NCBI GenBank assembly: GCA_913048525.1
Contig: CAJWWP010000001.1
Coordinates: 47,074-111,073, forward strand
Length of the DNA stretch: 64,000 nt
Source of the DNA: an uncultured Chloroflexota bacterium
GTDB lineage: Bacteria > Chloroflexota > Dehalococcoidia > Lucifugimonadales > UBA826
Reading direction: 5' to 3'
Shown: in pieces, positions 16,736 to 38,260 of the stretch
Layout: the number at the start of each line of letters is the position of its first letter
Position numbering within the stretch: the stretch's first letter is position 1
Translations under genes and position numbers: made by a program
Notes under the pieces: generated by a model
What the model saw: only the letters and a program-made list of their open reading frames with translations
The model's database searches: none
What the model was told of the DNA's origin: nothing

Positions 16736-16964
16736 GGGGGCTCCTTTTAGGGGCCTATTACCTTTATTGATTCTACCAGTCTTTCTCGAACTATCTCGCA
16801 ATGTCCAGACAGATTCTTCGAATCGAGCTAGGGGGAAAGTGTGTTTTCTATGTTGCTGTTTCAGACAATATTCGTTTACCCACTTATATTTGTGACTCCT
16901 GTTAACATGAAGGGCTGAATCTTTTAGTAGTTTGTTTTCCTGATGAGTGGAATATGGAGACTTG

Positions 16965-17969
16965 ATGGAGTACGTAAAATTAGGTAGTTCTGGATTACTT
17001 GTTTCCCCCTTGTGTCTTGGGACTATGATGTTCGGAAGCGCTGCAAATGAACGTGAATCTATAGCAATAACTCATCGGGCTGTAGATGACGGCATCAATT
17101 TTATCGACACAGCGAATGCGTATAACAATGGTTTATCTGAGACCATATTAGGTAAGGCATTAGAAGATCGTCGCGACAAGGTTGTACTTGTAACAAAGGT
17201 TAATGCCTCTACAGGGGACGGCCCTAACGAGGGGGGGTTGAGTAGATATCACATATTAAACGAGGTAGAGAATAGTCTTAGGAGACTAAAAACCGATCAT
17301 ATAGATATCTACATGCTTCACAGGAGGGATTTTGGCACCCCTTTAGAAGAATCTTTGGGAGCGATGAATGATCTTGTAAGACAAGGGAAAGTGCGTTACA
17401 TAGGGATGTCCAACCACTATTCCTGGCAGGTTAGAGGTGCGCTTGACCAAGCAAAGTATGAGGGAGTCTCACCGGTTGTTTGTGTGCAAGATCTCTACAA
17501 CATAGTAAACCGGGATTTAGAAGTCGATATGTTGCCGTTTTGTTATGAATTCGGAGTTGGTGTAATGGCGTACAGCCCTCTGGCAAGAGGGATTTTGACG
17601 GGTAAATATAGGCTGGGTGAAAATCTTCCTCCTGAGTCAAGGGCAGGGAGAGGCGATAGGCGAATGCTCGAGACTGAGTTGAGGGATGGGAGCCTAGCAG
17701 TAGCTCAAGAGCTTGCAGAACTGGCAGAAGGAACAGGAAAAAAACTGTCCCAGTTTGCCCTGAATTGGGTGATATCCAATCCGATTGTTACCTCTGCGAT
17801 TATTGGTCCTCGGAACCTCGATCAATATGAGGATAATCTTGGGGCTTTGGGTTGGGATATAGACTCTTCCATACTCAGTAAGGTTGATGCATTGGTCCCA
17901 CCAGGAGAGCATACAGGAAATGGATTCAACGATCCTCAGAATCCGGTAAGAGGCAGACCAGATTCATAA
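16965..17969 (+). CDS. aldo/keto reductase
   Basis: N-terminus MEYVKLGSSGLLVSPLCLGTM, DTANAY, and the catalytic-tetrad context are all typical of AKRs. The longest ORF starts at GTG 16947. Confidence 0.85.
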   Translation: MEYVKLGSSGLLVSPLCLGTMMFGSAANERESIAITHRAVDDGINFIDTANAYNNGLSETILGKALEDRRDKVVLVTKVNASTGDGPNEGGLSRYHILNEVENSLRRLKTDHIDIYMLHRRDFGTPLEESLGAMNDLVRQGKVRYIGMSNHYSWQVRGALDQAKYEGVSPVVCVQDLYNIVNRDLEVDMLPFCYEFGVGVMAYSPLARGILTGKYRLGENLPPESRAGRGDRRMLETELRDGSLAVAQELAELAEGTGKKLSQFALNWVISNPIVTSAIIGPRNLDQYEDNLGALGWDIDSSILSKVDALVPPGEHTGNGFNDPQNPVRGRPDS

Positions 17970-18067
17970 ATATTTGGATTAGCTTCTTCTGGCATTATGG
18001 ACCCACGGCCAGTCTTTGAAATAATTGAGTGCGATTAAAATATTTTTTGAGAAGGGGTGTTTGTTAA

Positions 18068-19012
18068 ATGCGTTATAGAACGCTTGGTAAAACTGAACTA
18101 AACGTTTCACTTCTCAGTTTCGGTTCAGGTGGACCCAGCAAATTGGGACAAAATACAGGGCTTTCTGGGAAGGAGCAAACCGATCTTATTAAACGAGTGA
18201 TGGATCTGGGCATCAATTTCATAGATTCCTCAGAAGGCTATGGTGAGAGTGAAGAGATATTAGGTAAAGGACTAGAAGGAATTTCAAGAGATTCCTATTT
18301 TCTCGCTACCAAAAGTATGTGTAGAAACAGACATGGTGAACTCAGAGATCCAGAAAAATTCTCTGCAGCAATCGACAGGAGCCTCAAGAGACTCGGGACT
18401 GACTATATCGATATTATGCAGTTTCATCTGCTGAACAAGGATGATTATGATGGCGTTGTGGATACCTTATATCCAGTTATGGACAAAGCTAGGACGGCAG
18501 GCAAAATTAGATTCATAGGTTTCAGTGAGCAGTACAAAACGGAACCAGACCATAGGACGGTTACCCATGCACTGAAGGTTGATCCCGATCTTTGGGATAC
18601 AGTCATGCTTAAGTATGGGATTCTAAATCAATATGCTGCCAAGGAAGCATTACCCCTTGCTCAAAAAAATAATGTGGGTGTCATCAATATGGCAGTGATT
18701 AGAGAAAAACTTCCGAACCCGAAGTTGTTAAGAGAACAGATCAAGATATGGAAAGAGGAAGGTTTACTAAATCCCATTGACCTAGATGATATAGATCCGC
18801 TTGGCTGGCTCATCAAGGGGGGGGTTAAATCTGTGGTCGATGCAGGATACATATTTGCCGGCGATCATCCCGGTGTTTCAACTGTCCTCACAGGTACATC
18901 GTCTGTTTCTCACCTCGAAGACAACGCCAGAGCATTGAATCTATTAGCTCTGCCTGAATCAGACACCCTAAAGTTGAGAAGTCTTTTTGGTGAAATAGCG
19001 GTGTATATATGA
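18068..19012 (+). CDS. aldo/keto reductase
   Basis: 314 aa. MRYRTLGKTELNVSLLSFG, DSSEGYG, YIDIMQFH. Confidence 0.8.
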   Translation: MRYRTLGKTELNVSLLSFGSGGPSKLGQNTGLSGKEQTDLIKRVMDLGINFIDSSEGYGESEEILGKGLEGISRDSYFLATKSMCRNRHGELRDPEKFSAAIDRSLKRLGTDYIDIMQFHLLNKDDYDGVVDTLYPVMDKARTAGKIRFIGFSEQYKTEPDHRTVTHALKVDPDLWDTVMLKYGILNQYAAKEALPLAQKNNVGVINMAVIREKLPNPKLLREQIKIWKEEGLLNPIDLDDIDPLGWLIKGGVKSVVDAGYIFAGDHPGVSTVLTGTSSVSHLEDNARALNLLALPESDTLKLRSLFGEIAVYI

Positions 19013-19013
19013 G

Positions 19014-20042
19014 TTAGGTCACTTCCAGTGTAGGGTTTCTAAGGGGAGCAGCAAATTGGGTTTTGTCTAACTCAATAAAGTCTTTCTGGTAGACCTGAAC
19101 TCTGTACGATTCGAAGTCAGGAATAAACAGTCTAAAATCTTCATCGATACGTACAGAACGAGGCCTTCTTATATATCTTTCATCTTCCAGTCGACCTGAT
19201 TCACGGAGTCGATTTGGCACGGCATTGGTTAGCATGTAATTTCGTGCGACCTTTGAAAGAGTGGCATCTCCCTGGAAACTCCAGACTTGATCTCCCTCTG
19301 AATTAAATTGTAGGACTCTATTATTTCCCCAGTCAGCCACATATATATCCCCGTGAGAGTCTACTGATATCCCCGTGGGTCTTTGGAATTCTGCGTCACC
19401 AGACCCAGTTTTACCAAAGGTATTTTTTAAATCCCCTACACCTGTGAAAATCTGAACTCTATTGTTTCCCCAATCGGAAACGTAAATATCGTCATTTTCA
19501 TCCACCTCAACTCCCCAGGGGAGGTTTAGCTGGCCTTCTCCACTTCCAAAAGATCCAAAGGATTCGAGGTACTTCCCGTCTATAGTGTAGCGTTGTATTC
19601 TGTGGTTTTTAGAATCCGCGATAATTAAGTTGCCAGAACTGTCGAAAGCGATTCCAGTGGGGCCGTCAAACTGTCCTACTCCTGATCCTTTCTCACCAAA
19701 TTTAGAAATGAAATTTCCTTCATTATCCAGACGGGTAATTCTGTTTGTATATTCATCACTTACAAATAGGTCTTCGTTAGGACCGGTCAATATGTTCACG
19801 GGCCATATAAATTGACCATCTTCTGTTCCGTAACTACTGAACCCTTCGAGTTCATCAGTAAGTTCCTCCATATCGTCAACTGACCATATTCTTATGGTGG
19901 CAACTCCTTCTGATCTCATTAGGATATACAGCTTCTTATCTTCACCAAAAGATATGTCGGTTGGAAAGTTTGTCACTCTCCTCATACCTAGAGTGGTCAG
20001 ATACGGAAATCCCGCTCTTAATATTCCATGTGGTCGGGTCAT
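19014..20042 (-). CDS. NHL-repeat beta-propeller protein (paralog 1)
   Basis: 342 aa. Repeated blades read G.FD.P.GIA.D..GN.YV(A/S)D..N.R(I/V)Q, e.g. YVSDWGNNRVQIF and YVADWGNNRVLQF. No signal peptide. AGAGGTA SD. Confidence 0.8.
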   Translation of the reverse strand: MTRPHGILRAGFPYLTTLGMRRVTNFPTDISFGEDKKLYILMRSEGVATIRIWSVDDMEELTDELEGFSSYGTEDGQFIWPVNILTGPNEDLFVSDEYTNRITRLDNEGNFISKFGEKGSGVGQFDGPTGIAFDSSGNLIIADSKNHRIQRYTIDGKYLESFGSFGSGEGQLNLPWGVEVDENDDIYVSDWGNNRVQIFTGVGDLKNTFGKTGSGDAEFQRPTGISVDSHGDIYVADWGNNRVLQFNSEGDQVWSFQGDATLSKVARNYMLTNAVPNRLRESGRLEDERYIRRPRSVRIDEDFRLFIPDFESYRVQVYQKDFIELDKTQFAAPLRNPTLEVT

Positions 20043-20074
20043 TGCTACTGTACCTCTTGTAACGTCATTACGAG

Positions 20075-21211
20075 TTATAGATAGAAAGGTTTAATCTGTT
20101 CAAATTCCCCTTTGACTATTGGTTTCGCATCAAGGTCGAGCCATTGTTCCAAAACAGTTCCATAGATGCCTCTGAAGTCGATGGTATGTTTCAGATCCTC
20201 GCCATGCTCCCAATCCGATGGGGCTAGCGAAGGATATTCGGAATAAAGATCACCTTTAACGTTTTTCCCAAATAAAAACGCTCCTCCTCCTGACCCATGA
20301 TCTGTGCCACTTCCATTGTCTCTCATGCGCCTTCCAAATTCAGTGAATACTAGAATTGCTACATTTTCAGATTCGTCATGTTGATCTAAGTCATCTAGAA
20401 AATCAGAAATTGCCCCGGAAAGATCGGCCATTAACTTTGGATGAGTAGGCATTTCGTTTGCGTGTGTGTCGTAACCACCGTGATTAGTATAAAAAATTCT
20501 TGTTCCTAGACCACTTAAATGTATTCTGGCCACATCTCTTAGGCTTTTGGCTATTGAGTTATCAGCATATTCGACTGAAGATTGATAGTTTGAAGCCACG
20601 TCACCGAGCATATCTGCTCCCTTAAGTACATCTAATCCAGTCTTGCCTATGTATTCAGAGACAACCCCACTACCTATGGCCTGACCGTAAATGTCTTTGA
20701 AAGCCTGCAGTGCTTTATCACGAAGCTGTTCTTTCTCAATTTGATTCATGACTCCGTAGCCTTCGAGATCACTTATTGAAGTTACAGGAACTCCAGCGAC
20801 AGACATAGCTCTTGGCAAACCTTGGCCAATATTAACTCCTGTGAGAACATTTTCGCTTTTGGGATCTAATTCACGGACGGCCAGCCCCAGCCAGCCTTCA
20901 CTTCCGACCCGATCCGGTTCACAAGTGTGCCAGATATCCATGCCTCTGAAATGAGATCTATTTGAGTCCGGATATCCGATTCCCTGTATTATGGCCATTC
21001 GTCCTTCATCGTAAAGACGTTTGAAAGGAGCCGCATTTTTGTTGATAGCTAAAGTGTCGTTAATCGGTAACACATCATCTTGACTCATCACTATCTTTTT
21101 CCGGGCATCATAGTAGTGATCATTGGTAAATGGAACGATGGTATTCATGAAATCGTTCCCACCGGTCATTTGCACTACTACAAGTGTTTTATCCTTACTC
21201 TTCGTTGCCAT
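20075..21211 (-). CDS. DUF1501 (sulfatase/alkaline-phosphatase-like) family protein, lacking a Tat signal
   Basis: LVVVQMTGGNDFMNTIVP ... HGGYDTH ... FTEFGRR ... GTDHG is the DUF1501 pattern as I remember it. ATG 21211 is preceded by AAAAGGGGAA; the longest ORF starts at TTG 21232. Confidence 0.7.
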   Translation of the reverse strand: MATKSKDKTLVVVQMTGGNDFMNTIVPFTNDHYYDARKKIVMSQDDVLPINDTLAINKNAAPFKRLYDEGRMAIIQGIGYPDSNRSHFRGMDIWHTCEPDRVGSEGWLGLAVRELDPKSENVLTGVNIGQGLPRAMSVAGVPVTSISDLEGYGVMNQIEKEQLRDKALQAFKDIYGQAIGSGVVSEYIGKTGLDVLKGADMLGDVASNYQSSVEYADNSIAKSLRDVARIHLSGLGTRIFYTNHGGYDTHANEMPTHPKLMADLSGAISDFLDDLDQHDESENVAILVFTEFGRRMRDNGSGTDHGSGGGAFLFGKNVKGDLYSEYPSLAPSDWEHGEDLKHTIDFRGIYGTVLEQWLDLDAKPIVKGEFEQIKPFYL

Positions 21212-21263
21212 TGGAATTCCCCTTTTTCTCAAACAGAGCTATCTTATGAGTATTTTTAGGATA

Positions 21264-22655
21264 TTAAGCAAATTGGTAATCTACACTAGATGCTGCCATT
21301 TGTATAAGATTGTGTACACCCGCGTTTCCTTTCTCATCGCTGAGTGTTTTTGCGTAGGCATTTAGTGATGACAGGGTCTCGTCACTAACTGTCAGCGCCC
21401 CAAGTAGATCAAGACACCTGCTAACTAATTGTTCAGGGTTGTCGTCTAAGCTACCTGCTTTAGAGAGCATCTCTGCTACACCTGGTTTATTTGGATCGGC
21501 AAACTGTTTTTCGACGAATCCAACTCTTTCACTCAACGTGCCGGAGTCTATCCACTCAAATCCGGTATGCCATCCCTCAACGGTTGGAGGGTTCATGAGT
21601 CTCTGTCCCATCACAGCAAGCGGTCCCTCTATTGCTGAACCGTTCAGAGTGGTCACGGCAAACTCATGTATCCCGGGTTTCGGTCTACTAAATTCTCCCG
21701 TCTGCCTGATCACACCCACTATGAGCTCTGTGGGGCTTTTTACCTTGGGTTTGGCCGAAGATTCCTTGAAAAATTCAGAGCTGAATAAGGTTTTCAACAC
21801 AACCTTCATATCACCCCTTGACTCCATGAACGCTGTTGTGAGCTCTTCTATAGCCTCCGGGTTTTTCGGCGGCACTGTCTCCCACGATGGGACTTGAATC
21901 TCGTCCTCTACGAAAAAGTTATATAAATGTCTGGATAAGAACCTTGCTGTTGCAGACTGTTTAATTATTATTTCTATGATGTCGCCACCGTCAAAATTTC
22001 CCCGCTGACCGAGAAATTCCTTTTCACCGTAGTCGTGATCTTCGGGTAGGAATTGGAATACGGCTTCATGGTGACCATAGGGGTAAAGAGACAATGGTTG
22101 CTTAAAAGTCCATCCTGTGAATGATCTCGAGGCATTTTTAATATCGTCTTCCGTGTAATTACCTACCCCCATGGAGAATAGTTCTAGTAACTCTCTGCCA
22201 TAATTTTCGTTAATTTCGTCTTTATGATTCTCGTTGTTGTCTAGCCAAAATATCATTGCTGGGTCTTTGGACAGTTCTAGAAGTATTTTCCCGAAATTTG
22301 TCATACCTACGTTACGGAAAAGGTTGATTTCATTGTAGAGTGAAGGGCCGTGTTCGCTCTTTCCCCAAGCGACTGGGAAAATGTGGTGAAGAAATAGTGC
22401 CATCTTTTCTTCGAGGGGGCGCTTCGTGTTGGCCATTCTGTAGAGCCATTTACCAACGTGAACAGCCACTGGCTCCCCCACGTAATATCTCTCCACATAT
22501 GACATATCGATCTCATCAAAACGTTCAGGATTAACTAGATCTTCTACGATTTCGTCATATGTTTGCTCCGAGGTCAACCGATCTAACTCAGATGGAGTTG
22601 CACCGAATCCAGCTCTTCTCATAAGGTGAGCTACCAGCTTTCTATCAGACTTCAT
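21264..22655 (-). CDS. DUF1800 family protein (paralog 1)
   Basis: HLMRRAGFGATPSEL at the N-terminus, FWLDNNENHK, NENYGRELLELFSMGVG. ATG 22655 follows TGGAGAAAG; the longest ORF starts at TTG 22670. Confidence 0.7.
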   Translation of the reverse strand: MKSDRKLVAHLMRRAGFGATPSELDRLTSEQTYDEIVEDLVNPERFDEIDMSYVERYYVGEPVAVHVGKWLYRMANTKRPLEEKMALFLHHIFPVAWGKSEHGPSLYNEINLFRNVGMTNFGKILLELSKDPAMIFWLDNNENHKDEINENYGRELLELFSMGVGNYTEDDIKNASRSFTGWTFKQPLSLYPYGHHEAVFQFLPEDHDYGEKEFLGQRGNFDGGDIIEIIIKQSATARFLSRHLYNFFVEDEIQVPSWETVPPKNPEAIEELTTAFMESRGDMKVVLKTLFSSEFFKESSAKPKVKSPTELIVGVIRQTGEFSRPKPGIHEFAVTTLNGSAIEGPLAVMGQRLMNPPTVEGWHTGFEWIDSGTLSERVGFVEKQFADPNKPGVAEMLSKAGSLDDNPEQLVSRCLDLLGALTVSDETLSSLNAYAKTLSDEKGNAGVHNLIQMAASSVDYQFA

Positions 22656-22779
22656 AGTAACTTTCTCCAATAAATGTAGGTCAATTACTTTGTTGCAACT
22701 CTACAATAATCTCATTAAATTATGAACTTAATTTTCTTACTATTGCGTGGCTAGTATCTACAAACCCTGAGTTTTATCA

Positions 22780-23622
22780 TCAAGATAGCTTTGCGATAAC
22801 CTCTGGGATTCGCTCATCCAAGGTATCAAACCCGACCCACTCTCCAAATCTAGCTGACAACGTTGCAATAACTGAGTCAGTTGCCTGTTCTGCGTTGCGA
22901 CCCTCTTCTATTGCACTTTTGCTGCTATTTACAAGCTCGTGTATGAAACTTCTGGCTTCAAGCAAATCTTCGTGATTTCCGTTAGGTCCATGGCCTGAGA
23001 CAAACGTTTCTATTGGGAGCTCAGCTATTTTGTCATCGGTCTCCGGCCAATCGGCGGGATAACTATCACCCAGATATGGAACTCTTCGATCTTGTATAAC
23101 GTCTCCCGTGAATACTAATTTCTCCTCTGGAACGTGAATAAAGATGTCACCACTTGTGTGAGCTCTACCAAAATATAGAAGCTCTAGCCGGCGTCCTCCA
23201 ATATAAAGGGACATACTGCTGTCAAATGTTAAATTTGGGGGTGTTATGTTGACAATTTTTGCCTCTTCTGCCCAGGGATCATCTCCTGTAACTATCTTAG
23301 AACGCCACTGGTCGTTCCATTGGTCGTCGGTCATTTCGAGATAGCAGTTTTGGTGGCCTATTATGGTTGCATCAGGAAATTCTTCATTTCCCCAGGAATG
23401 GTCCCAGTGCGCATGCGTGTCTATCACATACTTAATGGGTTTGTCGGTTATAAGCTTCACGTCAGAGATAAGATCTCTTGCAAAGGATGGCATTCTTAAG
23501 GAATCGATTATTAGAACTCCTTCATCACCAACGATAATGCCGGCATTGGTGAGATTCTCATGTAATCTTGCATAAATACCAGAAGCTACCTCAATAATTT
23601 CTGTTCCTGGCGTTGAGTTCAT
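22780..23622 (-). CDS. MBL-fold metallo-hydrolase
   Basis: 280 aa. HxHxDH motif DTHAHWDHSWG, plus downstream His/Asp ligands (HTSGD, SGHG). AGGGAGGAA SD. Confidence 0.85.
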   Translation of the reverse strand: MNSTPGTEIIEVASGIYARLHENLTNAGIIVGDEGVLIIDSLRMPSFARDLISDVKLITDKPIKYVIDTHAHWDHSWGNEEFPDATIIGHQNCYLEMTDDQWNDQWRSKIVTGDDPWAEEAKIVNITPPNLTFDSSMSLYIGGRRLELLYFGRAHTSGDIFIHVPEEKLVFTGDVIQDRRVPYLGDSYPADWPETDDKIAELPIETFVSGHGPNGNHEDLLEARSFIHELVNSSKSAIEEGRNAEQATDSVIATLSARFGEWVGFDTLDERIPEVIAKLS

Positions 23623-23669
23623 TCTTTTCCTCCCTTTGGGTTCCTCTAATAACTACTGGGTTACATCAT

Positions 23670-24827
23670 TTATAGAATATGCGCTTCTAGGACCTTCTCA
23701 TCGAACTCTATACCTAAACCAGGCCCTGTTGGGGGAACGATAAAGCCGTTGTCTAGGACCAATGGCTCTTTGAAAATTGATCTGTGAAGAGGTCCGTCAT
23801 TGGCCTCTTGAATTACGAAATTGGGTGAGCAAGTATCTATTTGAATTGCAGCTGCAGCGGCTACGGGACCGCAGTACATGTGGGGAGCTATCAGAGCATA
23901 GTGCGCCTCTGCTAGACCTGCGATTTTTTTTGCTTCGGTTATTCCTCCACATTGGCCTACGTCCAATTGGATAATTTGAGCCGCCTTTTTTTCTAATAGT
24001 TGAGCAAATTCGTATTTGGTAACAAGCCTCTCGCCACTAGCGATAGGAATATTTGTATGTGCGGCAACCCGGGCCATTTCGTCAATATTTTCAGGCATCA
24101 CTGGTTCTTCAAACCAGAAGGGATGGTAGGGTTCCATATAATCGGCTACTCTGATGGCACTGTATGTCGATAACTGCCCATGCGTTCCGATACCAACTTC
24201 AAGATCATTTCCGACAGCATTCCTTATGCTTTCAAAAATTTTTCCGCAGTACTCTATTTCCCATAATGGGATATCTCGAGGTCCCCGGGCTGGAGGGAAT
24301 GGATCTATTTTACAGGCGGTATTACCTTCCTCCATTAGTTGTATTGCTACATCACCGGCGATCTCCGGGTTTTCCATTATTAAGCCCTTATCCGTTCCTG
24401 GCGGCATGTATGCATATGCTCTCAGTTTTTCATGATACTTACCGCCAAGGAGATTGTAGATTGGCTGGTTGCAGGCTTTTCCTACAATGTCCCATAGAGC
24501 CATGTCTATCGCGCTCATGGCTGGTGTTGCGTACAAGCTGGGGTGTCTGAAGTCGTGAGCACCGCCGTACATGTCATCCCATATTTTTTCGATTTGAAAA
24601 GGATCTTTACCTATCACATATCTATCTGCTAACTGTTGGATAAGGCTAATATGAGGTTTGATATGTTCGGGATCAATGTAGTTGCCTACGACTCTTTCCC
24701 CGAGCCCTACTATGCCTTCATCGGTAAATATCTGTAAGAAAAGAAAATATCTGCCTCCAACAAAATGTTTTCTAGCTTTGTCTTCTTCATTTTGGATAAC
24801 CATTGTTTTAACTTTAGTTATTTTCAC
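23670..24827 (-). CDS. enolase-superfamily acid-sugar dehydratase-like enzyme
   Basis: 385 aa. MKITKVKT start, DMALWDIVGKACNQPIYNLLGG, FEEP, ASGE. GTG start with AAGGAA SD. Confidence 0.8.
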   Translation of the reverse strand: MKITKVKTMVIQNEEDKARKHFVGGRYFLFLQIFTDEGIVGLGERVVGNYIDPEHIKPHISLIQQLADRYVIGKDPFQIEKIWDDMYGGAHDFRHPSLYATPAMSAIDMALWDIVGKACNQPIYNLLGGKYHEKLRAYAYMPPGTDKGLIMENPEIAGDVAIQLMEEGNTACKIDPFPPARGPRDIPLWEIEYCGKIFESIRNAVGNDLEVGIGTHGQLSTYSAIRVADYMEPYHPFWFEEPVMPENIDEMARVAAHTNIPIASGERLVTKYEFAQLLEKKAAQIIQLDVGQCGGITEAKKIAGLAEAHYALIAPHMYCGPVAAAAAIQIDTCSPNFVIQEANDGPLHRSIFKEPLVLDNGFIVPPTGPGLGIEFDEKVLEAHIL

Positions 24828-24894
24828 TAGACGTTCCTTATGTCATTAAAACAGAAAATTCACTTTAAAATTCTGTGGCAGTATATAGCTTGTT

Positions 24895-25626
24895 TTAGGC
24901 GTCAAACCTATTCCACGTCGGAGTAATTAGAACTTCGTTGATGGTGACGTGGGGGGGTTGTTTTGCTATGAAAAGGATCAATTCTCCGAGGTCTTCAGAC
25001 TGTAGTATTCTCGCTTGATCTTCCGCACTGACCGGCACAGGGCGTTGTTCAAGAATTGGGGTAGCTACTTCTCCTGGGCATACTGCTGTAGCCCGTATTC
25101 CGTTGTTCCTTTCCTCTAGAAGTAGACTTGCGGTCATTGCATTCATGGCATGCTTCGCCGAAGTGTAACCGGGCCCAGTTAGCTTTCCAACACTTTTCGC
25201 AGCCATTGAGGATATATTCATGATCAGGCCTCCCCCTTGTTTTCTCATTGTAGGGAGGACCGCTTGGCAGCAATAAAATGCTCCGCTTAGGTCTATGTTA
25301 ATAACGCTGTCCCAGCCTTCAATGGATATGTTGTTCCAGTTACGGTCACGCACGTTTATTCCTGCGCTAAAAACCCCAATATCGATTCTCCCGTACTCCT
25401 GAACGACCTTTCCAACGACATCTTCTACTGCTCCACTATCTGAAACATCTAGAGGTTGTATTGTTACGTTGTTACCAATATGTTCTGCGACATTTTCCAG
25501 AACTTCACGTCTTCTGCCAGATAAGACAACAGAGCATCCCGCTTCCGCGAGTTTTATTGCAGCGCTTTCACCGATTCCAGTTCCAGCTCCTGTTATCCAA
25601 GCCACTTGTCCTTCTAAATTATGCAT
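24895..25626 (-). CDS. short-chain dehydrogenase/reductase (SDR)
   Basis: 243 aa. TGAGTGIGES, catalytic YTSAK. GAAGGAGAA SD. Confidence 0.9.
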   Translation of the reverse strand: MHNLEGQVAWITGAGTGIGESAAIKLAEAGCSVVLSGRRREVLENVAEHIGNNVTIQPLDVSDSGAVEDVVGKVVQEYGRIDIGVFSAGINVRDRNWNNISIEGWDSVINIDLSGAFYCCQAVLPTMRKQGGGLIMNISSMAAKSVGKLTGPGYTSAKHAMNAMTASLLLEERNNGIRATAVCPGEVATPILEQRPVPVSAEDQARILQSEDLGELILFIAKQPPHVTINEVLITPTWNRFDA

Positions 25627-25656
25627 ATTGTTCTCCTTCGAAAGTTCGAGTGTAAC

Positions 25657-26445
25657 CTATAGATTTTGGTCTTTGCAGACATCTTGGTCGAATAGAATGT
25701 GCCCTGTGTAGTTAGCGTCTTGTCCGCATACCCATACAGCAGCTTTTCCCATCTCATCAGCCGGTTCGAATTCAAGGGTTGGATTTTCAGGGTCATTCTC
25801 TGCCCAGATATTTCCTGGGGTACGAATTCTACCTTGAGGTGAAAGCACGTTGACCTTTATATTGTCCCCTTGAAGTTCACGTGCGAGCCCTTGCGAAAAT
25901 CTTTCTAGGCCTGACTTCACCATTCCGTAGAAACTGCCCTCTCGTCTTTGTGGTGTCGAATCATATGGTCCTGATCCTGGGAAGACACCAGCGACTGAAG
26001 AAACGTTTATGATGTCTCCTCTTCCGGCGTCTTTTAAGTGAGGCAAGGCATATTTCATCAGTAAGAGCGGACCTCTTAGGTCAATTTGCCAAATGAGATC
26101 TAGGTGTCTATCCTGGACCGTCTCCAAATTTCCTGGAACGAGTATCGCAGCGTTATTAATTACTATATCAAGCCCCCCAAGCTCTTCGGCTGCCTGAGAC
26201 ACACCATTTGTGATGCTTTCAGGATCACGCATATTCATCACCACGGGTGTTGCAGTTCCCCCTTCTGAATTAATCGATTCAGCAACGCTGTAAATTGTTC
26301 CCGGGAGCCTCTTATCGGTTACCTCGACTGTTCTGGCGGCGATAGCGACCTTTGCACCAGCTTTGGCCAGATGTTTCGCAAGATATTCGCCAATTCCTCT
26401 ACTAGAACCTGTAATTAGGGCGATTCTTCCATCAAGGCTTCCCAT
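25657..26445 (-). CDS. short-chain dehydrogenase/reductase (SDR)
   Basis: 262 aa. TGSSRGIGEY, NNAA, YGMVK. AAGGAGAG SD. Confidence 0.85.
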   Translation of the reverse strand: MGSLDGRIALITGSSRGIGEYLAKHLAKAGAKVAIAARTVEVTDKRLPGTIYSVAESINSEGGTATPVVMNMRDPESITNGVSQAAEELGGLDIVINNAAILVPGNLETVQDRHLDLIWQIDLRGPLLLMKYALPHLKDAGRGDIINVSSVAGVFPGSGPYDSTPQRREGSFYGMVKSGLERFSQGLARELQGDNIKVNVLSPQGRIRTPGNIWAENDPENPTLEFEPADEMGKAAVWVCGQDANYTGHILFDQDVCKDQNL

Positions 26446-26573
26446 TATTGCTCTCCTTTTTGTTTTTTACATATGGATTCGTAATATTAACCAAATGTGT
26501 CTATGGTGGCTATCCTTTTGTTTTGAAGTAAAGATCTGAGTTAGACGCGTTAGTGAGGTAATATATCGTTGAT

Positions 26574-27596
26574 ATGAAACCAAAATATTTAAAAACTATC
26601 GGCATAAAAACTAATCAACCCGTTGGGAGAGGTTTTCTTTTCCCATACGATGTTACATTTGATTCTTCTGGGATGATTTATGCTCTAAACAGGGGGAGAA
26701 TCAGTCAGGGCCTTGGTACCAGAATACAGATATTTGATTACGATGAAGAATGGTACGGTGAATTTGGGGAAGGAAGTGGAACAGGCCCTTTAAACTTTCT
26801 AATTCCTGTGGCAACAGCATTCAATTCCAAAGATGAACTTTTTGTGAGCGATGAAGGCGCCGGAGAGGTCAAAGTTTTCAGTCAGAAAGGTATCCCTTTA
26901 TATCAGGTAGGAGGGGAATCTGGTACGTGGGGCTGTGAGTTAATGGGTCCTTCTGGCATCGCGTTTGATGCAGATGACAATCTTTACGTTACCGAACGTT
27001 CTGCTTCTCGCCTGACGAAGATAGATGGCGATGGGAATGTAAGATACAGGGTTGGTGAGCCTGGTGATGGTCATCTGCAGTTCAATATGCCCTGGGGGAT
27101 AGCGACGGATGAGGACGGCTGTGTATATGTGGCAGATTGGAGAAACGATAGGATTCAAAAACTAGACCCTGATGGAAATTTCATCAAAGTATTTGGGAAA
27201 TCTGGAAACGCCGAGGGTCATTTCAATAGACCTTCCTCAGTCGCTGTGGATGGTAGTGGGAATATGTACGTGACTGACTGGGGAAATGAAAGGGTGCAGG
27301 TGCTTGATCCTGAGGGGCATTTTTTGCAAATACTTGAAGGCCAGGCGACTCTTTCTAAATGGGCTGAACAGTGGCTGACAGTCAACCCTGACGAATATTC
27401 TGCTAGGCGCTCATCAAATCTTTCGGTTTTGGATTTGCCTGCTCATCTGCAGAGTCCTTATCAGATTGGTTCACAGACTGAACATCTGTTTTGGGGTCCT
27501 GTATCAGCAAAGATAGATGATCATGAAAGGCTATACATAACCGAGCATAGTCGAGCTCGGATTCAGGTTTTCGATATATCTGATAAGGGCCTATGA
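26574..27596 (+). CDS. NHL-repeat beta-propeller protein (paralog 2)
   Basis: 340 aa. Blades include YVADWRNDRIQKL and YVTDWGNERVQVL. Shares the unusual ATLSK segment with paralog 1. Confidence 0.8.
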   Translation: MKPKYLKTIGIKTNQPVGRGFLFPYDVTFDSSGMIYALNRGRISQGLGTRIQIFDYDEEWYGEFGEGSGTGPLNFLIPVATAFNSKDELFVSDEGAGEVKVFSQKGIPLYQVGGESGTWGCELMGPSGIAFDADDNLYVTERSASRLTKIDGDGNVRYRVGEPGDGHLQFNMPWGIATDEDGCVYVADWRNDRIQKLDPDGNFIKVFGKSGNAEGHFNRPSSVAVDGSGNMYVTDWGNERVQVLDPEGHFLQILEGQATLSKWAEQWLTVNPDEYSARRSSNLSVLDLPAHLQSPYQIGSQTEHLFWGPVSAKIDDHERLYITEHSRARIQVFDISDKGL

Positions 27597-27640
27597 GTTA
27601 AAGAATCTGGCAACTACCGTTAGGTTATGGGGTACAAGTT

Positions 27641-29086
27641 ATGACAATTGCTCGAAGAAATGTACAAGTTAACACTAAATACAGGCAGATAAGCCATCTT
27701 TTGAGGCGAGCAGGATTTGGTGCCACACCCGGTGAGATGGATCGCTATATGGGAATGGATTATTCAGAGGTTGTCGATGAACTTCTCAATGTACCAGGAA
27801 CATCTGCTATGCCAAATGACGTGATATTCAGAATGTTTCCCGAATATCACGCTTCCCTTGGTGTAGACGCATGTGCCAATTGGGCTTACAGAATGGTTTC
27901 TACAGATAATCCGTTGGAAGAGAAAATAGCTCTTTTCTGGCATGGAATATTCGCTACTGGGAATGACAAGCTCAACAATCCACTGGTTTTACTTAATCAG
28001 ATTGACACATTTAGAAGAAACGGAATGAGTAGATTTGACGATATATTGCTCGATCTCTCCAGAGACCCCGCCATGTTGATTTGGCTGGATAATCAGACTA
28101 ACCATAAGGATTCAATTAACGAGAATTATGGACGAGAAATCCTAGAATTATTCTCAATGGGTGTTGGTAATTATACCGAAGATGACATCAAAGAATGCGC
28201 TCGAGCTTTTACAGGATGGTCGGTAAAAAATGCCGAGTACATGGCTTTGATGGGCCAAAAAGACTCGATATGGCCCTATAGCAGAATTTCATGGCATTAC
28301 GAGTATTGTCAGAATGATCATGATGATAGTGAAAAGACTTTCCTAGGCGAAATGGGTAAATTCGGCGGGGAGGATATTATAGAAATTATTTGCAGACAAG
28401 AATCCACAGCAAAATTTATATCGCGGCATTTATATAATTTTTTCGTGGAGGATGAGGTTCAAGTGCCTTCATGGCAGGATGTGCCTCCTAAGAATCCCGA
28501 GGCAATATCTACTCTGATGGAGGCATATTTTGAGCACGGGCATGATTTAAATAAGGTTCTGAAGGTTCTTTTTGAATCCGATTTCTTTAAAGAATCTGAG
28601 TATAAGAAAGTTAAGGGTCCGGCGGAGATGGTTATTAATGTCCTTCGCTTGTCAGGTGGGTTTGAGGAGCCGAGCCTATCAATGATCCAGGCGGTTGACG
28701 AGGCAGGATTTATGGGGCAATTACTTTTTTACCCTCCATCAGTAGAAGGTTGGCACACCGGTCAGGAATGGATTACAAGCGGATCGGTGCTAGATAGAGT
28801 AAATTTTTCGTCAGCTCGCTTAACCGATCTGTCTTCTCCAGGCATTAGAGATATAGTAAACAGAGTAAGGAACCGTTGTGGGGCTGATACAAGACCAGAT
28901 TATGTAATACAAGTTTTTCTTGAGCTTTTGGGAATAATTGAAATTTCGGATATGACATTTGATCTATTGTTGGAGGTCTGTGGTGGAGAGAATTCCGTGA
29001 TTGACGTAACTACCGGGAGTTTTGATGTGATGGCATCGAATCTCCTACGTGTTATAGGCTCTTCGAAAGAGTTTCACTTAGTGTAA
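27641..29086 (+). CDS. DUF1800 family protein (paralog 2)
   Basis: 481 aa. HLLRRAGFGATPGEM, IWLDNQTNHK, NENYGREILELFSMGVGNYTEDDIK. Long peptide blocks are shared with 21264..22655. Confidence 0.7.
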   Translation: MTIARRNVQVNTKYRQISHLLRRAGFGATPGEMDRYMGMDYSEVVDELLNVPGTSAMPNDVIFRMFPEYHASLGVDACANWAYRMVSTDNPLEEKIALFWHGIFATGNDKLNNPLVLLNQIDTFRRNGMSRFDDILLDLSRDPAMLIWLDNQTNHKDSINENYGREILELFSMGVGNYTEDDIKECARAFTGWSVKNAEYMALMGQKDSIWPYSRISWHYEYCQNDHDDSEKTFLGEMGKFGGEDIIEIICRQESTAKFISRHLYNFFVEDEVQVPSWQDVPPKNPEAISTLMEAYFEHGHDLNKVLKVLFESDFFKESEYKKVKGPAEMVINVLRLSGGFEEPSLSMIQAVDEAGFMGQLLFYPPSVEGWHTGQEWITSGSVLDRVNFSSARLTDLSSPGIRDIVNRVRNRCGADTRPDYVIQVFLELLGIIEISDMTFDLLLEVCGGENSVIDVTTGSFDVMASNLLRVIGSSKEFHLV

Positions 29087-29414
29087 TTATCCGGATTATG
29101 GAAATACGACTTTGTCTTCAATTCCGGACTGGAATAAGTCACCTTCAAAATAGAATTTTGCAATCTCTTTTTCGTCCAACTCATTCAGCGATATCGTCCA
29201 CATAGCCAGGGGGTAAAGCGACAAGCACCATAAACCCTCACCATTTCTCATGAGGTTTCAAGCGTGGGGAGAGTTACCCTATATTTGAGCTCAGTCCCGC
29301 ATAAAATTTTGAATGCATTTAGTATAACGATCCACCATTTGGAGCTCCAACCCAAATGACGGATTGTCTACTACACACATACCTCTGTGAATGAAAAAAA
29401 AGAGGAAAAAATTA

Positions 29415-30064: not shown

Positions 30065-31666
30065 ATGCCAATTGATCACGACCGAGAGTACTGGAAGCCT
30101 GGAATGCCCTGGGACAAGGCTCTTGAAGATATCGAGTATGTTAAGGAACTTGCCAGCGAAATGGGAGGTTCGGATCGAATCGAACGCCAACACAGTGGGG
30201 GCCGATATACGGTCAGGGAAAGGATAGAAAAGATTCTAGACTCTGGTAGTTTTCTTGAAGCTGGACCAATGGTGGGAGCCGCCGAATTTGACGATGATGG
30301 CAATCTGAAAGAATTTACTCCCGGAGCCTACGTCATGGGGCTTGGAGAAATAGATGGCCGTCCAGTTGCAATTGGAGGTGATGATTTCACGATTTCGGGT
30401 GGTAGTCCCCACAATGTCAGGAAAAATTCTCGCCAATTCACACAACCACTGGCGATGCAATATGGCATTCCATATGTGCAGCTGGTTGAGGGTGTTGGGC
30501 ATAGTGCGAAAGCGGATGAGGCGGCAGGTCATATGGGACTTCCGGATGGATCACAGTGGCATGAAGGAGTGGAACTTTTAAAAAAAGTTCCTGTTGCTGC
30601 TGGAATAATGGGTTCGGTTGCAGGGGCTCCGGCAGCTTACGCTTTAATGTCTCACTTTACGGTTATGGTAAAGGAGCAATCCCAAATATTCCCCTCTGGA
30701 CCTCCTGTGGTTAGACGTGCGATTGGGGAAACTCTTGATAAAGAAGAACTTGGCGGATACAGGATGCATGTTCATGACAGTGGTCAGGTTGATAATGTTG
30801 CCGATACTGAAGAAGAGGCTTTTGAACAGATTAAAAAGTTTATATCCTACCTACCCAATACCACATCCGATGTCGCAGACCGCGTGGAAACTGGTGATTC
30901 TCCAGATAGGAGACCTGAAGAATTACTAAGCATTATTCCACCTAATCGAAAGCGTTCATATGACCCTCGTAAACTTATAAGTTTGGTTGTCGACAATGGT
31001 GATTTTTTTGAGATGAGGAGACATTGGGCAGGGGCTGTTATCACGGGATTTGCAAGACTGGATGGGTACAGCGTTGGTATCGTAGGTAGCGACCCAAGAT
31101 TTCTCGCAGGTGCTATGGACGGCTGGGCGGCTGAAAAATATACTCACTTTCTCGATCTCTGCGATGCCTTCAATTTGCCGGTTGTGGTATTTCTGGACAT
31201 GCCCGGGTTTATGTTGGGATCCCATGCGGAGAGAAAGGCCACTATGAGGAGGGGAGTGAGAGCGCTCATTGCTAGCGCAGAGGCCGAAATTCCCAAAGTA
31301 GAATTCAATGTAAGAAAGGCGTATGGAGTTGCTGCTGACGCAATACATAGTCTCGGACATCCCAATGGATTAAATCTTCGTTATGGCTGGCCCGCGGGAG
31401 AATGGGGTGGGATACCAATAGAAGGGGGTGTTGCTGCCGCTTACAGAAGGGAAATTGAATCTGCGGAAGATCCGGAAGCACACAGGGAGATGATTGAGAA
31501 TAGGTTACTAAGACTCAGATCCCCTTTTAGAGCTGCCTACAAAGGCGACGTGGTTGATCTAATAGACCCGAGAGATACTAGGCGGTTAGCATGTAAGTTT
31601 GTGAAGTTGGCCCAACCTATGCTGGCCAAACTTTCACAGAGGCCTAAGAGGGCTGTTAGGCCATAA
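30065..31666 (+). CDS. acyl-CoA carboxyltransferase (biotin-dependent carboxylase beta / 12S-type subunit)
   Basis: About 533 aa. RIERQHSGGRYTVRERIEKILDSGSFLE at the N-terminus and two crotonase-like halves (GGDDFTISGGS ... FLDMPGFMLG) are typical of the carboxyl_trans domain. The longest ORF starts at GTG 30056. Confidence 0.85.
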   Translation: MPIDHDREYWKPGMPWDKALEDIEYVKELASEMGGSDRIERQHSGGRYTVRERIEKILDSGSFLEAGPMVGAAEFDDDGNLKEFTPGAYVMGLGEIDGRPVAIGGDDFTISGGSPHNVRKNSRQFTQPLAMQYGIPYVQLVEGVGHSAKADEAAGHMGLPDGSQWHEGVELLKKVPVAAGIMGSVAGAPAAYALMSHFTVMVKEQSQIFPSGPPVVRRAIGETLDKEELGGYRMHVHDSGQVDNVADTEEEAFEQIKKFISYLPNTTSDVADRVETGDSPDRRPEELLSIIPPNRKRSYDPRKLISLVVDNGDFFEMRRHWAGAVITGFARLDGYSVGIVGSDPRFLAGAMDGWAAEKYTHFLDLCDAFNLPVVVFLDMPGFMLGSHAERKATMRRGVRALIASAEAEIPKVEFNVRKAYGVAADAIHSLGHPNGLNLRYGWPAGEWGGIPIEGGVAAAYRREIESAEDPEAHREMIENRLLRLRSPFRAAYKGDVVDLIDPRDTRRLACKFVKLAQPMLAKLSQRPKRAVRP

Positions 31667-32859
31667 TGGGGAAGATTCCTAAAGGAAACAGTCATCAACT
31701 TCCTCTTGAAGGGACAAGAGTTCTAGAGGTATCCGAGGGTGTTGCCGGTCCGTACTGTGGTAGGTATCTAGCATCGCTGGGTGCTGAAGTTGTTAAGATT
31801 GAGCGTCCTCCACTTGGCGACTGGACCAGAGAAGTGGGCCCATTTATTGAGGGTCTGCCTCCCGGGGATAATAGCGCTCTTAACTTATACAACAATCAAG
31901 GAAAGAAGTCCGTCCTGTTGGAATGGACATCCAACAACGGGTTTGAGAACCTCCAATCTTTAGTGCCGGGGTTCGATATTCTTATAGAAGATTGGGATTT
32001 AAATCTTAGGGATGATATTGGTGTCGAGCGTAGTAGATTCGTTGATTCCAATCCAGGACTTATAGAGATTTCAGTGACTCCGTTTGGGCTTTCTGGTCCG
32101 TATGCAAGATGGAAGTCAAGTCCACTTGTCCAGCTGGCTCTGGGCGGATATATGTATCTCACAGGTGAAAGGGGTAAGGAACCTCTGATGCTTCCTGGGA
32201 GACAGCCTGATTATTTGACCGGTTTGAATGCTAGTGCTGCAGTCCACATAGCGCTATGGGAGAGGGAAAGGAGCGGGTCTGGGCAATTCCTCGAGATGTC
32301 TATGTTGGAGACCCTTGCAACATTGCATCAGTTTACAATGGAAATGACTACCTTTGAGGGAGTTCTTCGGATGAGAAACGGGAATCAGTGGCAGAAGGAG
32401 AGCTCTTTTGCATCGTACGGAATAACTACTTTGCCTTGTAGTGACGGGTACATCTGTTTTGGTATTTCTACAGAAGATCAATGGGAGCGTCTATGCGCAA
32501 TGATAGGTAGGGAAGATCTAATAGATGACCCAAATTACGATACCAGAATAAAAAGAGCTGATAACTCGGAATATCTTGACGAACTTCTTACTGAATGGAT
32601 TTCGAATCGCACCCGGCGTGAAATCTTTGTGGAAACTTCAGAAATTTGGGGACTGCCAACTGCACCAATTCTCGATATGTCTGAAGTAGTAAAAGACGAG
32701 CAGTTCATCTACAGAAATATTTTCCACGACCAAGTGCTTGGTAAAGGGCAGACTGTCACATTCCCTAAATATCCATATATTGCTTCGGAGATGAAGCCTA
32801 GGATAGGAATGGCACCGCGTCTTGGTGAACATACTGAAGATGTGTTGAGGACTAAGTGA
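31666..32859 (+). CDS. family III (CaiB/BaiF) CoA-transferase, subunit/paralog A
   Basis: 397 aa. LGAEVVKIERPPLGDWTR motif. The start ATG overlaps the upstream stop (TAATG). Confidence 0.85.
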   Translation: MGKIPKGNSHQLPLEGTRVLEVSEGVAGPYCGRYLASLGAEVVKIERPPLGDWTREVGPFIEGLPPGDNSALNLYNNQGKKSVLLEWTSNNGFENLQSLVPGFDILIEDWDLNLRDDIGVERSRFVDSNPGLIEISVTPFGLSGPYARWKSSPLVQLALGGYMYLTGERGKEPLMLPGRQPDYLTGLNASAAVHIALWERERSGSGQFLEMSMLETLATLHQFTMEMTTFEGVLRMRNGNQWQKESSFASYGITTLPCSDGYICFGISTEDQWERLCAMIGREDLIDDPNYDTRIKRADNSEYLDELLTEWISNRTRREIFVETSEIWGLPTAPILDMSEVVKDEQFIYRNIFHDQVLGKGQTVTFPKYPYIASEMKPRIGMAPRLGEHTEDVLRTK

Positions 32860-34055
32860 ATATGGTTCAGGGCCTTGTTTCCTCAGGAAGCCTATCGAAT
32901 ATTCGTGTTCTTGACCTAACTCGAGTTTGGGCTGGTCCTTTGGCGACTAGAGTGATGGGTGACTTTGGTGCTGACATAATCAAGATAAGTGATCCTAGAG
33001 TACAACTTCTGAGTTCCAACGGTCTAAACCACAAACTTAACCGCAACAAAAGAAATATTGGGATCAGGCTGGATATAGAGGAAGGAAGAGAAATATTGCT
33101 TGGACTTGTAAGAAAGTCTGACGTAATAGTTGAGAACTTCCGGCCCCGAGTGATGAGAAATTTGAAGATAGATTATGAAGTTCTCAAAACTGTTAAACCA
33201 GATATTATTTTTGTGTCGATGCCTGGTTTTGGAGCGAATGGGCCTTATTCTGAGTACCCTGCGTTTGGAACGACAGCTGAGGCAGTAGCTGGTATTCCCT
33301 CCCTTATAGGCTACGGAGACGGAGTGCCAATATCTACCGGTATAGCTTATGGTGATCCTGTCTCGGGTCTGAATGCCATAACTTTAATAATGGCTGCTCT
33401 CCGAATGAGGAATAAGACAGGACACGGACAATTTATAGACATCGCATTGTCAGCAAGTCCACTGTGCAATATTGGCGAGTATGTTGCAGCATATTCGAGC
33501 TCAGAAAACATCACCAGTCCCTCCGGCAACAGGTCTATAGAATATTCTCCGCAAGGTGCTTTTCGATGCAGGGGAAGAGATCAATGGATTGGTATCAGTG
33601 TCTTTAATGACGACGAGTGGATGAACTTGAAAGACTTAGTTAGTGATCCCGATCTCAATAACATAGAAACGTTTAGCTTGGAACAAAGACAAGATAATGA
33701 GGAGATCATAGAAGGAGCAATAGCAAAATGGACGTCTAGGCTTGACGTATTTGAAGCCGTTTCTCTTCTTCAGGAAAATGGCGTCAGGGCTGGTACGGTC
33801 AGCAGTGGCGCTCAACTCTTGGAGGATCCTCACCTAAACGATCGGGATTTCTTTTTTGATCTTGAAGAGAAAGAATATGGGTGGAAAAGATATGATGGGA
33901 ATTCCATTCCCGGGAATAGGATTCCCAAGTCTCAATGGAGTCCAACCAACAATGTTGGTGTTAATAGCAAAGAAATACTAACCGATTTATTAGGGTATAC
34001 AGAATCTTTTTGCGAAGCCCTGGCCTCAAAGGAAGCGGTTTATTTTGAGGAGTGA
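32856..34055 (+). CDS. family III (CaiB/BaiF) CoA-transferase, subunit/paralog B
   Basis: 399 aa. FGADIIKISDP and the catalytic-Asp context IAYGDPVSGLNA. The GTG start overlaps the upstream TGA (GTGA); ATG 32862 is an alternative start. Confidence 0.85.
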   Translation: MNMVQGLVSSGSLSNIRVLDLTRVWAGPLATRVMGDFGADIIKISDPRVQLLSSNGLNHKLNRNKRNIGIRLDIEEGREILLGLVRKSDVIVENFRPRVMRNLKIDYEVLKTVKPDIIFVSMPGFGANGPYSEYPAFGTTAEAVAGIPSLIGYGDGVPISTGIAYGDPVSGLNAITLIMAALRMRNKTGHGQFIDIALSASPLCNIGEYVAAYSSSENITSPSGNRSIEYSPQGAFRCRGRDQWIGISVFNDDEWMNLKDLVSDPDLNNIETFSLEQRQDNEEIIEGAIAKWTSRLDVFEAVSLLQENGVRAGTVSSGAQLLEDPHLNDRDFFFDLEEKEYGWKRYDGNSIPGNRIPKSQWSPTNNVGVNSKEILTDLLGYTESFCEALASKEAVYFEE

Positions 34056-37415: not shown

Positions 37416-37418
37416 TAG

Positions 37419-38216: not shown

Positions 38217-38260
38217 GTGTGCAGCAATCGAATAAATAGTTAACTCTGGAGGAAGATGAA

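Follow-up and report, generated by a model that had tools for sequence, protein, structure and literature searches.

Two divergent modules in the window

The present analysis concerns two divergently oriented gene modules in a 64-kb stretch of DNA, hereafter the window, which the source names of homologs place within the SAR202/Dehalococcoidia group of Chloroflexota. The gene content of the region was determined by Pfam scan (Table 1). Module 1 (22655 to 19014, minus strand) is complete and encodes a DUF1800 protein (DUF1800-1), a DUF1501 protein and an NHL-repeat protein (NHL-1). Module 2 (26574 to 29086, plus strand) is a reduced pair in which NHL-2 is followed by DUF1800-2. The three-gene module is conserved across phyla and is a real unit. 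An earlier sequence-only reading of this DNA had given the minus-strand order as SDR, SDR, enolase, metallo-beta-lactamase (MBL), DUF1800, DUF1501, NHL and the plus-strand order as NHL, DUF1800, with a divergent gap of 128 bp between them. The Pfam result agrees with both orders, and the gap is exactly of this size. The profile searches which that reading had proposed (PF08811, PF07394 and PF01436) were carried out, and every module protein matches.

Two start sites were revised with the help of homologs. The DUF1501 start was moved to the ATG at 21211, which gives a protein of 378 aa identical to protein P0241, and this sequence is present on 51 contigs. The start of DUF1800-1 was moved from the TTG at 22670, where the mechanical open reading frame (ORF) begins, to the ATG at 22655, which gives 463 aa; the homologs begin with MKSDR. 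The lengths reported earlier for the two NHL proteins were found to be right. The window contains one DUF1501 copy. No DUF1501 remnant was found downstream of DUF1800-2 (29087-29390), and the idea of a DUF1501 pseudogene behind that gene was rejected on this ground.

Table 1. Genes and spacer of the divergent region (window coordinates).
Feature	Position	Strand	Evidence or remark
SDR	25657-26445	minus	Pfam
SDR	24895-25626	minus	Pfam
MR/MLE enolase-superfamily gene	23670-24827	minus	MR_MLE_C 197 bits, MR_MLE_N 60 bits
Metallo-beta-lactamase (MBL-fold hydrolase)	22780-23622	minus	Pfam
DUF1800-1, first gene of module 1	21264-22655 (ORF 21264-22670)	minus	PF08811, E 5.8e-94
DUF1501, putative catalytic subunit, module 1	20075-21211 (ORF 20075-21232)	minus	PF07394, E 1.1e-23
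NHL-1, third gene of module 1, 342 aa	19014-20042	minus	PF01436, E 9e-37
Divergent intergenic region, 128 bp	26446-26573		between SDR-led block and module 2
NHL-2, first gene of module 2, 340 aa	26574-27596	plus	PF01436, E 1.9e-28
DUF1800-2, second gene of module 2, 481 aa	27641-29086	plus	PF08811, E 1.2e-92

Recurrence, co-diversification and absence of export signals

About 160 loci were compared, all chosen for encoding a relative of NHL-1 or NHL-2. Eighty were taken from one-genome-per-species contigs through the NHL alignment and 80 from metagenomes through NHL-2. Their six-frame ORFs were searched with the window proteins and the neighbours were counted per NHL gene, where an NHL gene flanked on each side by 3 kb or more was regarded as evaluable (n = 90). 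The NHL-1 family is represented by 4512 matches at E<1e-10; the best 120 of these are 63-90% identical and 341-346 aa long, save one truncated 323-aa entry. DUF1800 and/or DUF1501 adjoins the NHL gene on the same strand in 86 of the 90 evaluable cases. Both partners are present in 70, DUF1800 only in 11, DUF1501 only in 5 and neither in 4. When the NHL proteins were dereplicated (single linkage, 70% identity), both partners were found in 18 of 23 evaluable clusters, one partner in 5 and neither in none. The order DUF1800, DUF1501, NHL accounts for 92 modules at any flank length, and the main variant orders are DUF1800-NHL (15), NHL-DUF1800 (8) and DUF1501-DUF1800-NHL (6). The median intergenic gaps in the modules are 39 and 56 bp. 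The carriers belong to Dehalococcoidia/SAR202, Caldilineaceae, Entotheonella/Tectimicrobiota, Poribacteria and Latescibacterota, and the module also appears in marine, soil and rhizosphere metagenomes. It is widespread in SAR202, and soils as well as several phyla of sponge symbionts have it too. As a negative control, an NHL protein of generic type from Chlorohelix (35% identity), which does not belong to the family, has no DUF1800 or DUF1501 neighbours. This best plasmid NHL match had been considered as a cultured carrier and was discarded, because the protein is generic, has 570 aa and is encoded in an FHA/kinase context. The sequence-only reading had suggested that an NHL protein is recurrently coupled to DUF1800 and DUF1501. 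The counts bear this out, and the enrichment of NHL genes beside the two families held in other genomes across Chloroflexota, Tectimicrobiota/Entotheonella, Poribacteria and Latescibacterota. This cross-genome comparison gives strong support to a module of three components. A homolog search with DUF1501 returned near-identical sequences only and added no diversity.

NHL and DUF1800 co-diversify. Their pairwise distances correlate with r = 0.89 in 121 co-located pairs, a value reached by none of 999 Mantel permutations. The clades obtained by independent clustering of the two families agree with an adjusted Rand index of 0.89 at k = 4, and paralogous modules inside one genome fall in matched NHL/DUF1800 clades. 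DUF1800 and NHL form the more constant pair, and DUF1501 is sometimes absent or common to two pairs. The arrangements with altered copy number are DUF1501-DUF1800-NHL-DUF1800-NHL (L105:3-5942), DUF1800-DUF1800-DUF1501-NHL (L025, L047 and L048), DUF1800-DUF1501-NHL-DUF1800 (L042 and L044), DUF1800-DUF1501-NHL-NHL (L150:3935-8939) and NHL-DUF1800-DUF1501-NHL (L095:3-4373). A pair-only locus and a full triad occur together in OY762409.1 and MPND01, as in the window. Entotheonella carries two DUF1800-DUF1501-NHL triads in tandem, and a single triad lies on an unrelated 2.9-Mb contig.

The DUF1800 gene of the first tandem triad in Entotheonella factor is split into three ORFs (L001:7426-8832; also L002-L005). 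The same split is seen in five independent assemblies or read sets, and intact relatives of 468 aa exist at 90% identity or more. This points either to a genuine pseudogene or to recoding at that site.

The module proteins start a few residues ahead of their first conserved element, and the module DUF1501 begins about 10 residues before its first strand. Neither a signal peptide nor a hydrophobic N-terminus was found in the five module proteins of the window, so that the cytoplasmic appearance noted earlier for the NHL proteins holds for both NHL-1 and NHL-2. In the module loci a twin-arginine motif of the RRxFL type is carried by 0 of 127 DUF1501 and 0 of 146 DUF1800 proteins; on DUF1501, the twin-arginine (Tat) signal is typical of the canonical exported pair. 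Eight plasmid-borne DUF1800-DUF1501 pairs served as controls (Thermus, Miltoncostaea, Chondrinema, Azospirillum, Sphingomonas, Agarilytica, Vibrio and Novosphingobium). The RR motif is present on seven of the eight control DUF1501 proteins, several control DUF1800 proteins begin with a hydrophobic or lipoprotein-like stretch, and no NHL-family gene lies within 6 kb of any of the eight pairs. Therefore, the NHL partner goes with the signal-less, cytoplasmic branch of DUF1800-DUF1501 and is not general to all pairs. A general rule by which DUF1800 would be exported through the Tat signal of its DUF1501 partner was dropped, as several proteobacterial DUF1800 proteins apparently have signals of their own.

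DUF1800-1 and DUF1800-2 share 46% amino-acid identity (E 6e-138), and NHL-1 and NHL-2 share 33% (E 6e-51). From four long peptides common to the two DUF1800 proteins, with DNA judged by eye to be roughly three-quarters identical, an old duplication with retention of both copies had been proposed. All four peptides are present. The DNA identity is 77-82% in these blocks and 52% for the complete gene, and the third codon positions, at 31%, are saturated. The dN/dS values of all nine genes, calculated against the close relatives L088 and L089, are 0.02-0.07 (NHL-1 and NHL-2 0.05-0.06 each, DUF1501 0.02, DUF1800-2 0.06-0.07). Both copies are under strong purifying selection, and the proposal of an old, retained duplication stands. 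Two segments had also been named as shared by the NHL proteins. The (D/Q)ATLSK segment is indeed common to both, but YVADW(G/R)N(N/D)R is a generic NHL blade motif that comes from different blades. Modules 1 and 2 belong to different matched NHL/DUF1800 clades in the window and in L088, and likewise in L080. Therefore, the duplication is ancient or one copy was acquired, as opposed to a local tandem event. The closest relatives of NHL-2 (at least 53% identity) stand in the order NHL-DUF1800 without DUF1501, those at 43-50% in the order DUF1800-NHL or DUF1501-DUF1800-NHL, and those at 42% or less in the canonical triad.

Protein features and a proposed mechanism

DUF1501 matches PF07394 with 84 bits against a cut-off of 27, the best stretch covering residues 231-345 only (profile 238-364 of 390), and the profile is matched by all 25 diverse DUF1501 members of the module. 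The residues D20 (in GGND), S86-H87-F88-R89, D248-x-H250, E291-FGRR and D304-H305-G306 are invariant in these 25 members and at least 98% conserved in 112 sequences. A weak Sulfatase match appeared in one of the 25. The residue pattern suggests a metal-dependent active site of the alkaline-phosphatase superfamily with a serine nucleophile. The superfamily includes sulfatases, NPP/phosphodiesterases, cofactor-independent phosphoglycerate mutase and phosphopentomutase, and the counterparts in DUF1501 would be the GGND aspartate after the first strand, the nucleophile position in RSHF, the D-x-H pair and the late DHG. However, DUF1501 has no detectable sequence similarity to any solved member. 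We know of no report that a member of this superfamily needs a DUF1800-like or propeller partner.

The two DUF1800 proteins match PF08811 with 316 and 312 bits (cut-off 26.1) over positions 1-418 of the 419-position profile, and they contain many invariant acidic, histidine and tryptophan residues. The AlphaFold2 model of DUF1800-1 is mostly helical with small hairpins, with a predicted TM-score (pTM) of 0.82. Model confidence is lowest in the best-conserved motifs of the protein (residues 140-169 and 362-376), where the predicted local distance difference test score (pLDDT) falls below 50; this fits sites that need a partner or a ligand. A single-sequence search of the PDB with DUF1800 gave two chance-level matches only (E 0.38 and 0.95).

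The NHL proteins match PF01436 with 124 and 97 bits (cut-off 20). Six [VI]xDxxNxR[IV] blade motifs are seen in the NHL alignment A1, and the profile aligns to the six-bladed structures of TRIM71 and Brat. The nearest PDB profiles are the ligand-binding NHL domains of TRIM71, Thin, TRIM2/3, Brat and PknD (E 7e-99 to 9e-33), and PAL scores much lower than this group. The termini of the NHL-1 clade are near-invariant (MTRPHGLLRAGYPYL... and ...PLRNPTLEVT) and are lacking in NHL-2. The clade also has a family-specific insert (GDATLSKVARNYMLTNAV...) ahead of blade 6. The SGL family (SMP-30/gluconolactonase/LRE, PF08450) is matched by NHL-1 and NHL-2 with 41 and 47 bits against 26.3, over profile positions of about 122-218 of 246 only, and Vgb_lyase and Phytase-like give weak matches. 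The best NCBIfam match of both proteins is ScyF (NF035926), at 176 and 156 bits, which is below its cut-off of 350.

Because of the tight operon structure, the co-diversification, the strong constraint and the loss of export signals, the module is regarded as a functional unit, and it is probably enzymatic. The copy-number variants keep a single DUF1501 beside extra DUF1800 and/or NHL genes, which led to a model with DUF1501 as the catalytic component and DUF1800-NHL as partner or specificity pairs. In the mechanism that we propose, the three proteins would act together in the cytoplasm as a single unit and probably as a heteromeric enzyme. Catalysis would fall to DUF1501, as a metallo-hydrolase or transferase of the alkaline-phosphatase-superfamily type, with Ser86 as the predicted nucleophile and D20, D248/H250 and D304/H305 as candidate metal ligands, and its substrate would be a phosphoryl or sulfuryl ester that is cleaved or transferred. 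DUF1800 would be an obligate helical partner whose invariant polar motifs (NENYGRELLELF, DHD and PP-VEGWHTG) may add to the active site or to substrate binding. The NHL propeller, as a third subunit limited to the cytoplasmic branch, would most likely serve in substrate recognition or as a scaffold. Further DUF1800-NHL pairs, module 2 among them, would be alternative partner/specificity pairs that use the single DUF1501 in trans. The neighbouring genes loosely hint at the catabolism of a small organic-acid or sugar-acid-like compound. We consider the chances of this heteromeric unit, as it is read from the sequences, to be about even.

Several points weigh against this mechanism. The superfamily assignment of DUF1501 depends only on its place in the alkaline-phosphatase clan of Pfam and on the motifs. 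The AlphaFold2 model of DUF1501, built from an alignment of 85-97% identical sequences, reached a pLDDT of only 31. Searches of the PDB with the single DUF1501 sequence and with its profile A3 gave no match, and when this profile was compared with E. coli AslA by hhalign, the probability was 0.5. The model of DUF1800-1 found no relative in the PDB with Foldseek, so that the role given to DUF1800 is a guess. The NHL protein may itself be catalytic, considering its partial SGL matches above the cut-off. No gene fusion with the family-specific C-terminus of NHL-1 was found among the best 150 representatives. What this search returned was fragments, NHL repeats of generic type and free-standing proteins some 335-355 aa long. 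The neighbouring genes vary by lineage, and the inference of a substrate is therefore weak. Many loci come from related metagenome-assembled genomes (MAGs), with an effective sample of about 23-45 clusters. Finally, every module locus was reached through its NHL gene, and the counts refer to NHL genes rather than to signal-less DUF1800-DUF1501 pairs in general.

The main rival explanation is that of three separate soluble enzymes of one pathway without a complex, in which the NHL protein would be catalytic. DUF1501 would remove a phosphate or sulfate ester, NHL would act as an SMP-30/gluconolactonase-, PAL- or Vgb-type lactonase or lyase, and DUF1800 would perform a third step or act as a binding protein. 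The SGL, Vgb_lyase and Phytase-like matches agree with it, as do the catabolic character of the neighbours (enolase superfamily, SDR, aldo/keto reductase, MBL and CoA-transferase), a gene order that is not absolutely fixed (DUF1501-DUF1800-NHL, DUF1800-NHL and NHL-DUF1800 all occur) and the dispensability of DUF1501 at some loci. However, the SGL matches span only about two blades, and the best PDB relatives are non-enzymatic NHL domains. The tight co-diversification of NHL with DUF1800 and the conserved NHL termini are more typical of interacting subunits, and DUF1800 and NHL stay paired in the copy-number variants. We regard separate enzymes as somewhat unlikely. It was also considered that the module is no metabolic enzyme but serves binding, scaffolding or storage in the cytoplasm, for instance of metals or minerals, with a catalytically silent or regulatory DUF1501. 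Two DUF1800 proteins (W4LJC4 and W4LDN1) are abundant in the arsenic/barium-mineralising vesicle fraction of Entotheonella (PMC12981691), the NHL proteins are nearest to ligand-binding NHL domains, and the acidic, histidine and tryptophan residues of DUF1800 would suit such a role. The vesicle proteins differ from the DUF1800 proteins of the triads (W4LAK6 and W4L4Y9), and their identity with the triad copies was rejected by accession. Moreover, the nucleophile and metal-ligand set of DUF1501 is intact under strong purifying selection, which argues for catalysis, and free-living bacteria of ocean and soil commonly carry the module. Storage or scaffolding is accordingly rated as quite improbable.

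An anti-phage defence system, with DUF1501 as a PglZ (BREX)-like protein of the alkaline-phosphatase superfamily and the repeat protein as a sensor, would explain one isolated locus (L007:4147-17898), in which the triad lies amid GmrSD/HNH, AAA_15/AAA_21 ATPase, ADP-ribosylglycohydrolase and M78 peptidase genes. PADLOC-DB 2.0 contains no match to DUF1800 or DUF1501 and only a weak NHL-repeat match to PD-T4-6 (E 5e-5), and the defence explanation was rejected on this result. The identities of 63-90% across phyla and the low dN/dS values are also unlike those of fast-evolving defence genes, metabolic neighbours dominate, and several module copies per genome stand in stable contexts. Its probability is thus very small. 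The adjacency could lastly reflect chance, or synteny inherited in one lineage, and have no functional meaning. Many loci do come from related Dehalococcoidia MAGs and all were selected through NHL, but the adjacency is seen in four phyla or more as well as in soil metagenomes, survives rearrangements of the order and is still there where NHL identity has fallen to 34%. No dereplicated cluster lacks both partners, while the generic Chlorohelix NHL protein does not have such neighbours. Chance or inherited synteny is refuted by these co-occurrence data and is hardly credible.

Relation to known systems and neighbouring genes

DUF1800 and DUF1501 are large families, to our knowledge without a known function. 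The sequence-only reading had called their pairing well known and functionally unassigned, and this is so. One paper mentions the exported pair as a predicted operon that moved along with bacterial chitin synthases in a transfer (PMC5122149). The exported pair of Proteobacteria, Bacteroidota, Actinomycetota and Thermus has the same Pfam families, order and tight adjacency as the module. The DUF1800 motifs HLxxRAGFG and NENYxRELxELF and the DUF1501 motifs GGND and GTDHG are common to both. However, the exported pair has a twin-arginine DUF1501 and no NHL gene, whereas the module lacks the signals and adds NHL, and the module DUF1501 is only 22-32% identical to the plasmid proteins. The module is a distinct branch of this known pair. 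DUF1501 also occurs in dozens of copies per planctomycete genome. In the PSCyt1/PSCyt2/PSD1 (DUF1549/DUF1553)-DUF1501 modules of Planctomycetes and Verrucomicrobia, which are specific to the Planctomycetes-Verrucomicrobia-Chlamydiae (PVC) group, DUF1501 is likewise combined with a large partner in many paralogs per genome (PMC3542564). In these modules the partner seems to diversify with a constant DUF1501, as in the module described here, and DUF1800-1 has a weak match to PSD1 (E 0.0026). Their partners differ in having cytochrome-c motifs, carbohydrate-binding domains and targeting to the membrane or periplasm, and NHL is not described for them, whereas the present module is cytoplasmic with DUF1800 and NHL. 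DUF1800 and DUF1501 appear in a survey of type VI secretion systems as well.

Bacterial NHL or beta-propeller proteins in a metabolic operon are known from scytonemin biosynthesis (ScyD, ScyE and ScyF), where their role is likewise unassigned. ScyF is an exported PEP-CTERM protein of an unrelated operon, whereas the NHL proteins of the window are cytoplasmic and score far below its cut-off. The TRIM-NHL proteins (TRIM71/LIN-41, Brat, TRIM2/3 and Thin) and the PknD sensor, the nearest NHL profiles, are six-bladed and bind their ligands on the top face. These are domains of larger eukaryotic or kinase proteins, whereas NHL-1 is a stand-alone protein with its own insert and termini.

A full-text search of the literature found no paper linking DUF1800 or DUF1501 to NHL, nor SAR202 to NHL repeats. 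The literature searched treats DUF1800 and DUF1501 only as genomic curiosities or, once, as proteome matches. The cytoplasmic, NHL-bearing form of the known pair is apparently undescribed. As a signal-less, soluble and highly conserved form with a fixed third partner, it should make biochemistry much easier than the Tat-exported forms do. SAR202 is a deep-ocean clade credited with degrading recalcitrant dissolved organic matter. A bolder proposal would make the module a new class of cytoplasmic three-subunit metalloenzyme, with interchangeable DUF1800-NHL specificity pairs on a shared DUF1501, that cleaves refractory phosphorylated or sulfated organics in SAR202, sponge symbionts and soil bacteria; we hold this to be speculative and distinctly doubtful. 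Were it correct, it would offer the first way into the biochemistry of the very large DUF1800/PSD1-DUF1501 families. In the sponge literature, PF01436 NHL proteins have been counted as 'eukaryotic-like proteins' (PMC11706023). Contrary to such a count, the NHL family described here is cytoplasmic, operon-bound and also found in free-living bacteria, and is therefore probably metabolic rather than a host-interaction factor.

The SDR, enolase and MBL genes upstream of module 1 are lineage-specific neighbours found in close relatives only and lie outside the core module, though they may be co-transcribed with it. The whole divergent arrangement including SDR-SDR-enolase-MBL is repeated in L088 (92%) and L089 (86%). 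L090 has the upstream genes up to NHL-2, and L011 also has MBL. Enolase-superfamily genes of other subfamilies stand near modules in 27 loci and SDR genes in 25. On the enolase-superfamily gene of the window, the galactonate dehydratase model NF010624 scores 266 bits, below its cut-off of 311. In L088-L090, relatives with protein identities of 86-92%, the 128-bp divergent spacer shows a conservation of about 85-89%; it presumably holds promoters for both directions. GTAATAT occurs twice in it, one copy being 10 nt upstream of the NHL-2 start codon. A scan for consensus promoters and terminators gave matches below chance expectation, no promoter match in the spacer exceeding chance, and no regulator gene adjoins the spacer.

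Two further genes recur beside NHL modules elsewhere. A conserved, cysteine-free protein of about 110 aa (VYWPRVKxILDxIMxRW...GKMPLxGPFLSxxExxEIVxWIDxGMPEGP), absent from the window, adjoins the module in 20 marine and soil loci (L116:10153-10518, L124:9959-10348, L151:9048-9398 on the minus strand, L165:3947-4279 on the minus strand and 16 more). There is a weak similarity between its C-terminus and a cytochrome-c domain (PF13442, E 0.008), but the CxxCH motif is lacking. The protein may be a fourth module partner in some lineages. A gene of the MqnA/MqnD family (PF02621, E 1e-30 to 1e-42) directly follows NHL in 21 loci, mostly on the same strand (L122:9105-9857, L128:1384-2148, L116:8948-10003 and 18 more), and in five of these an EPSP-synthase-family gene comes next. 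The window itself is crowded with paralog families. There are three enolase-superfamily genes (5734-6906, 11338-12501 and the one upstream of module 1). In addition, aldo/keto reductases and CoA-transferase III are each encoded twice and SDRs three times in tandem, within 16947-19012, 31666-34055 and 36654-39013. Such crowding matches the paralog expansions reportedly found in SAR202 genomes.

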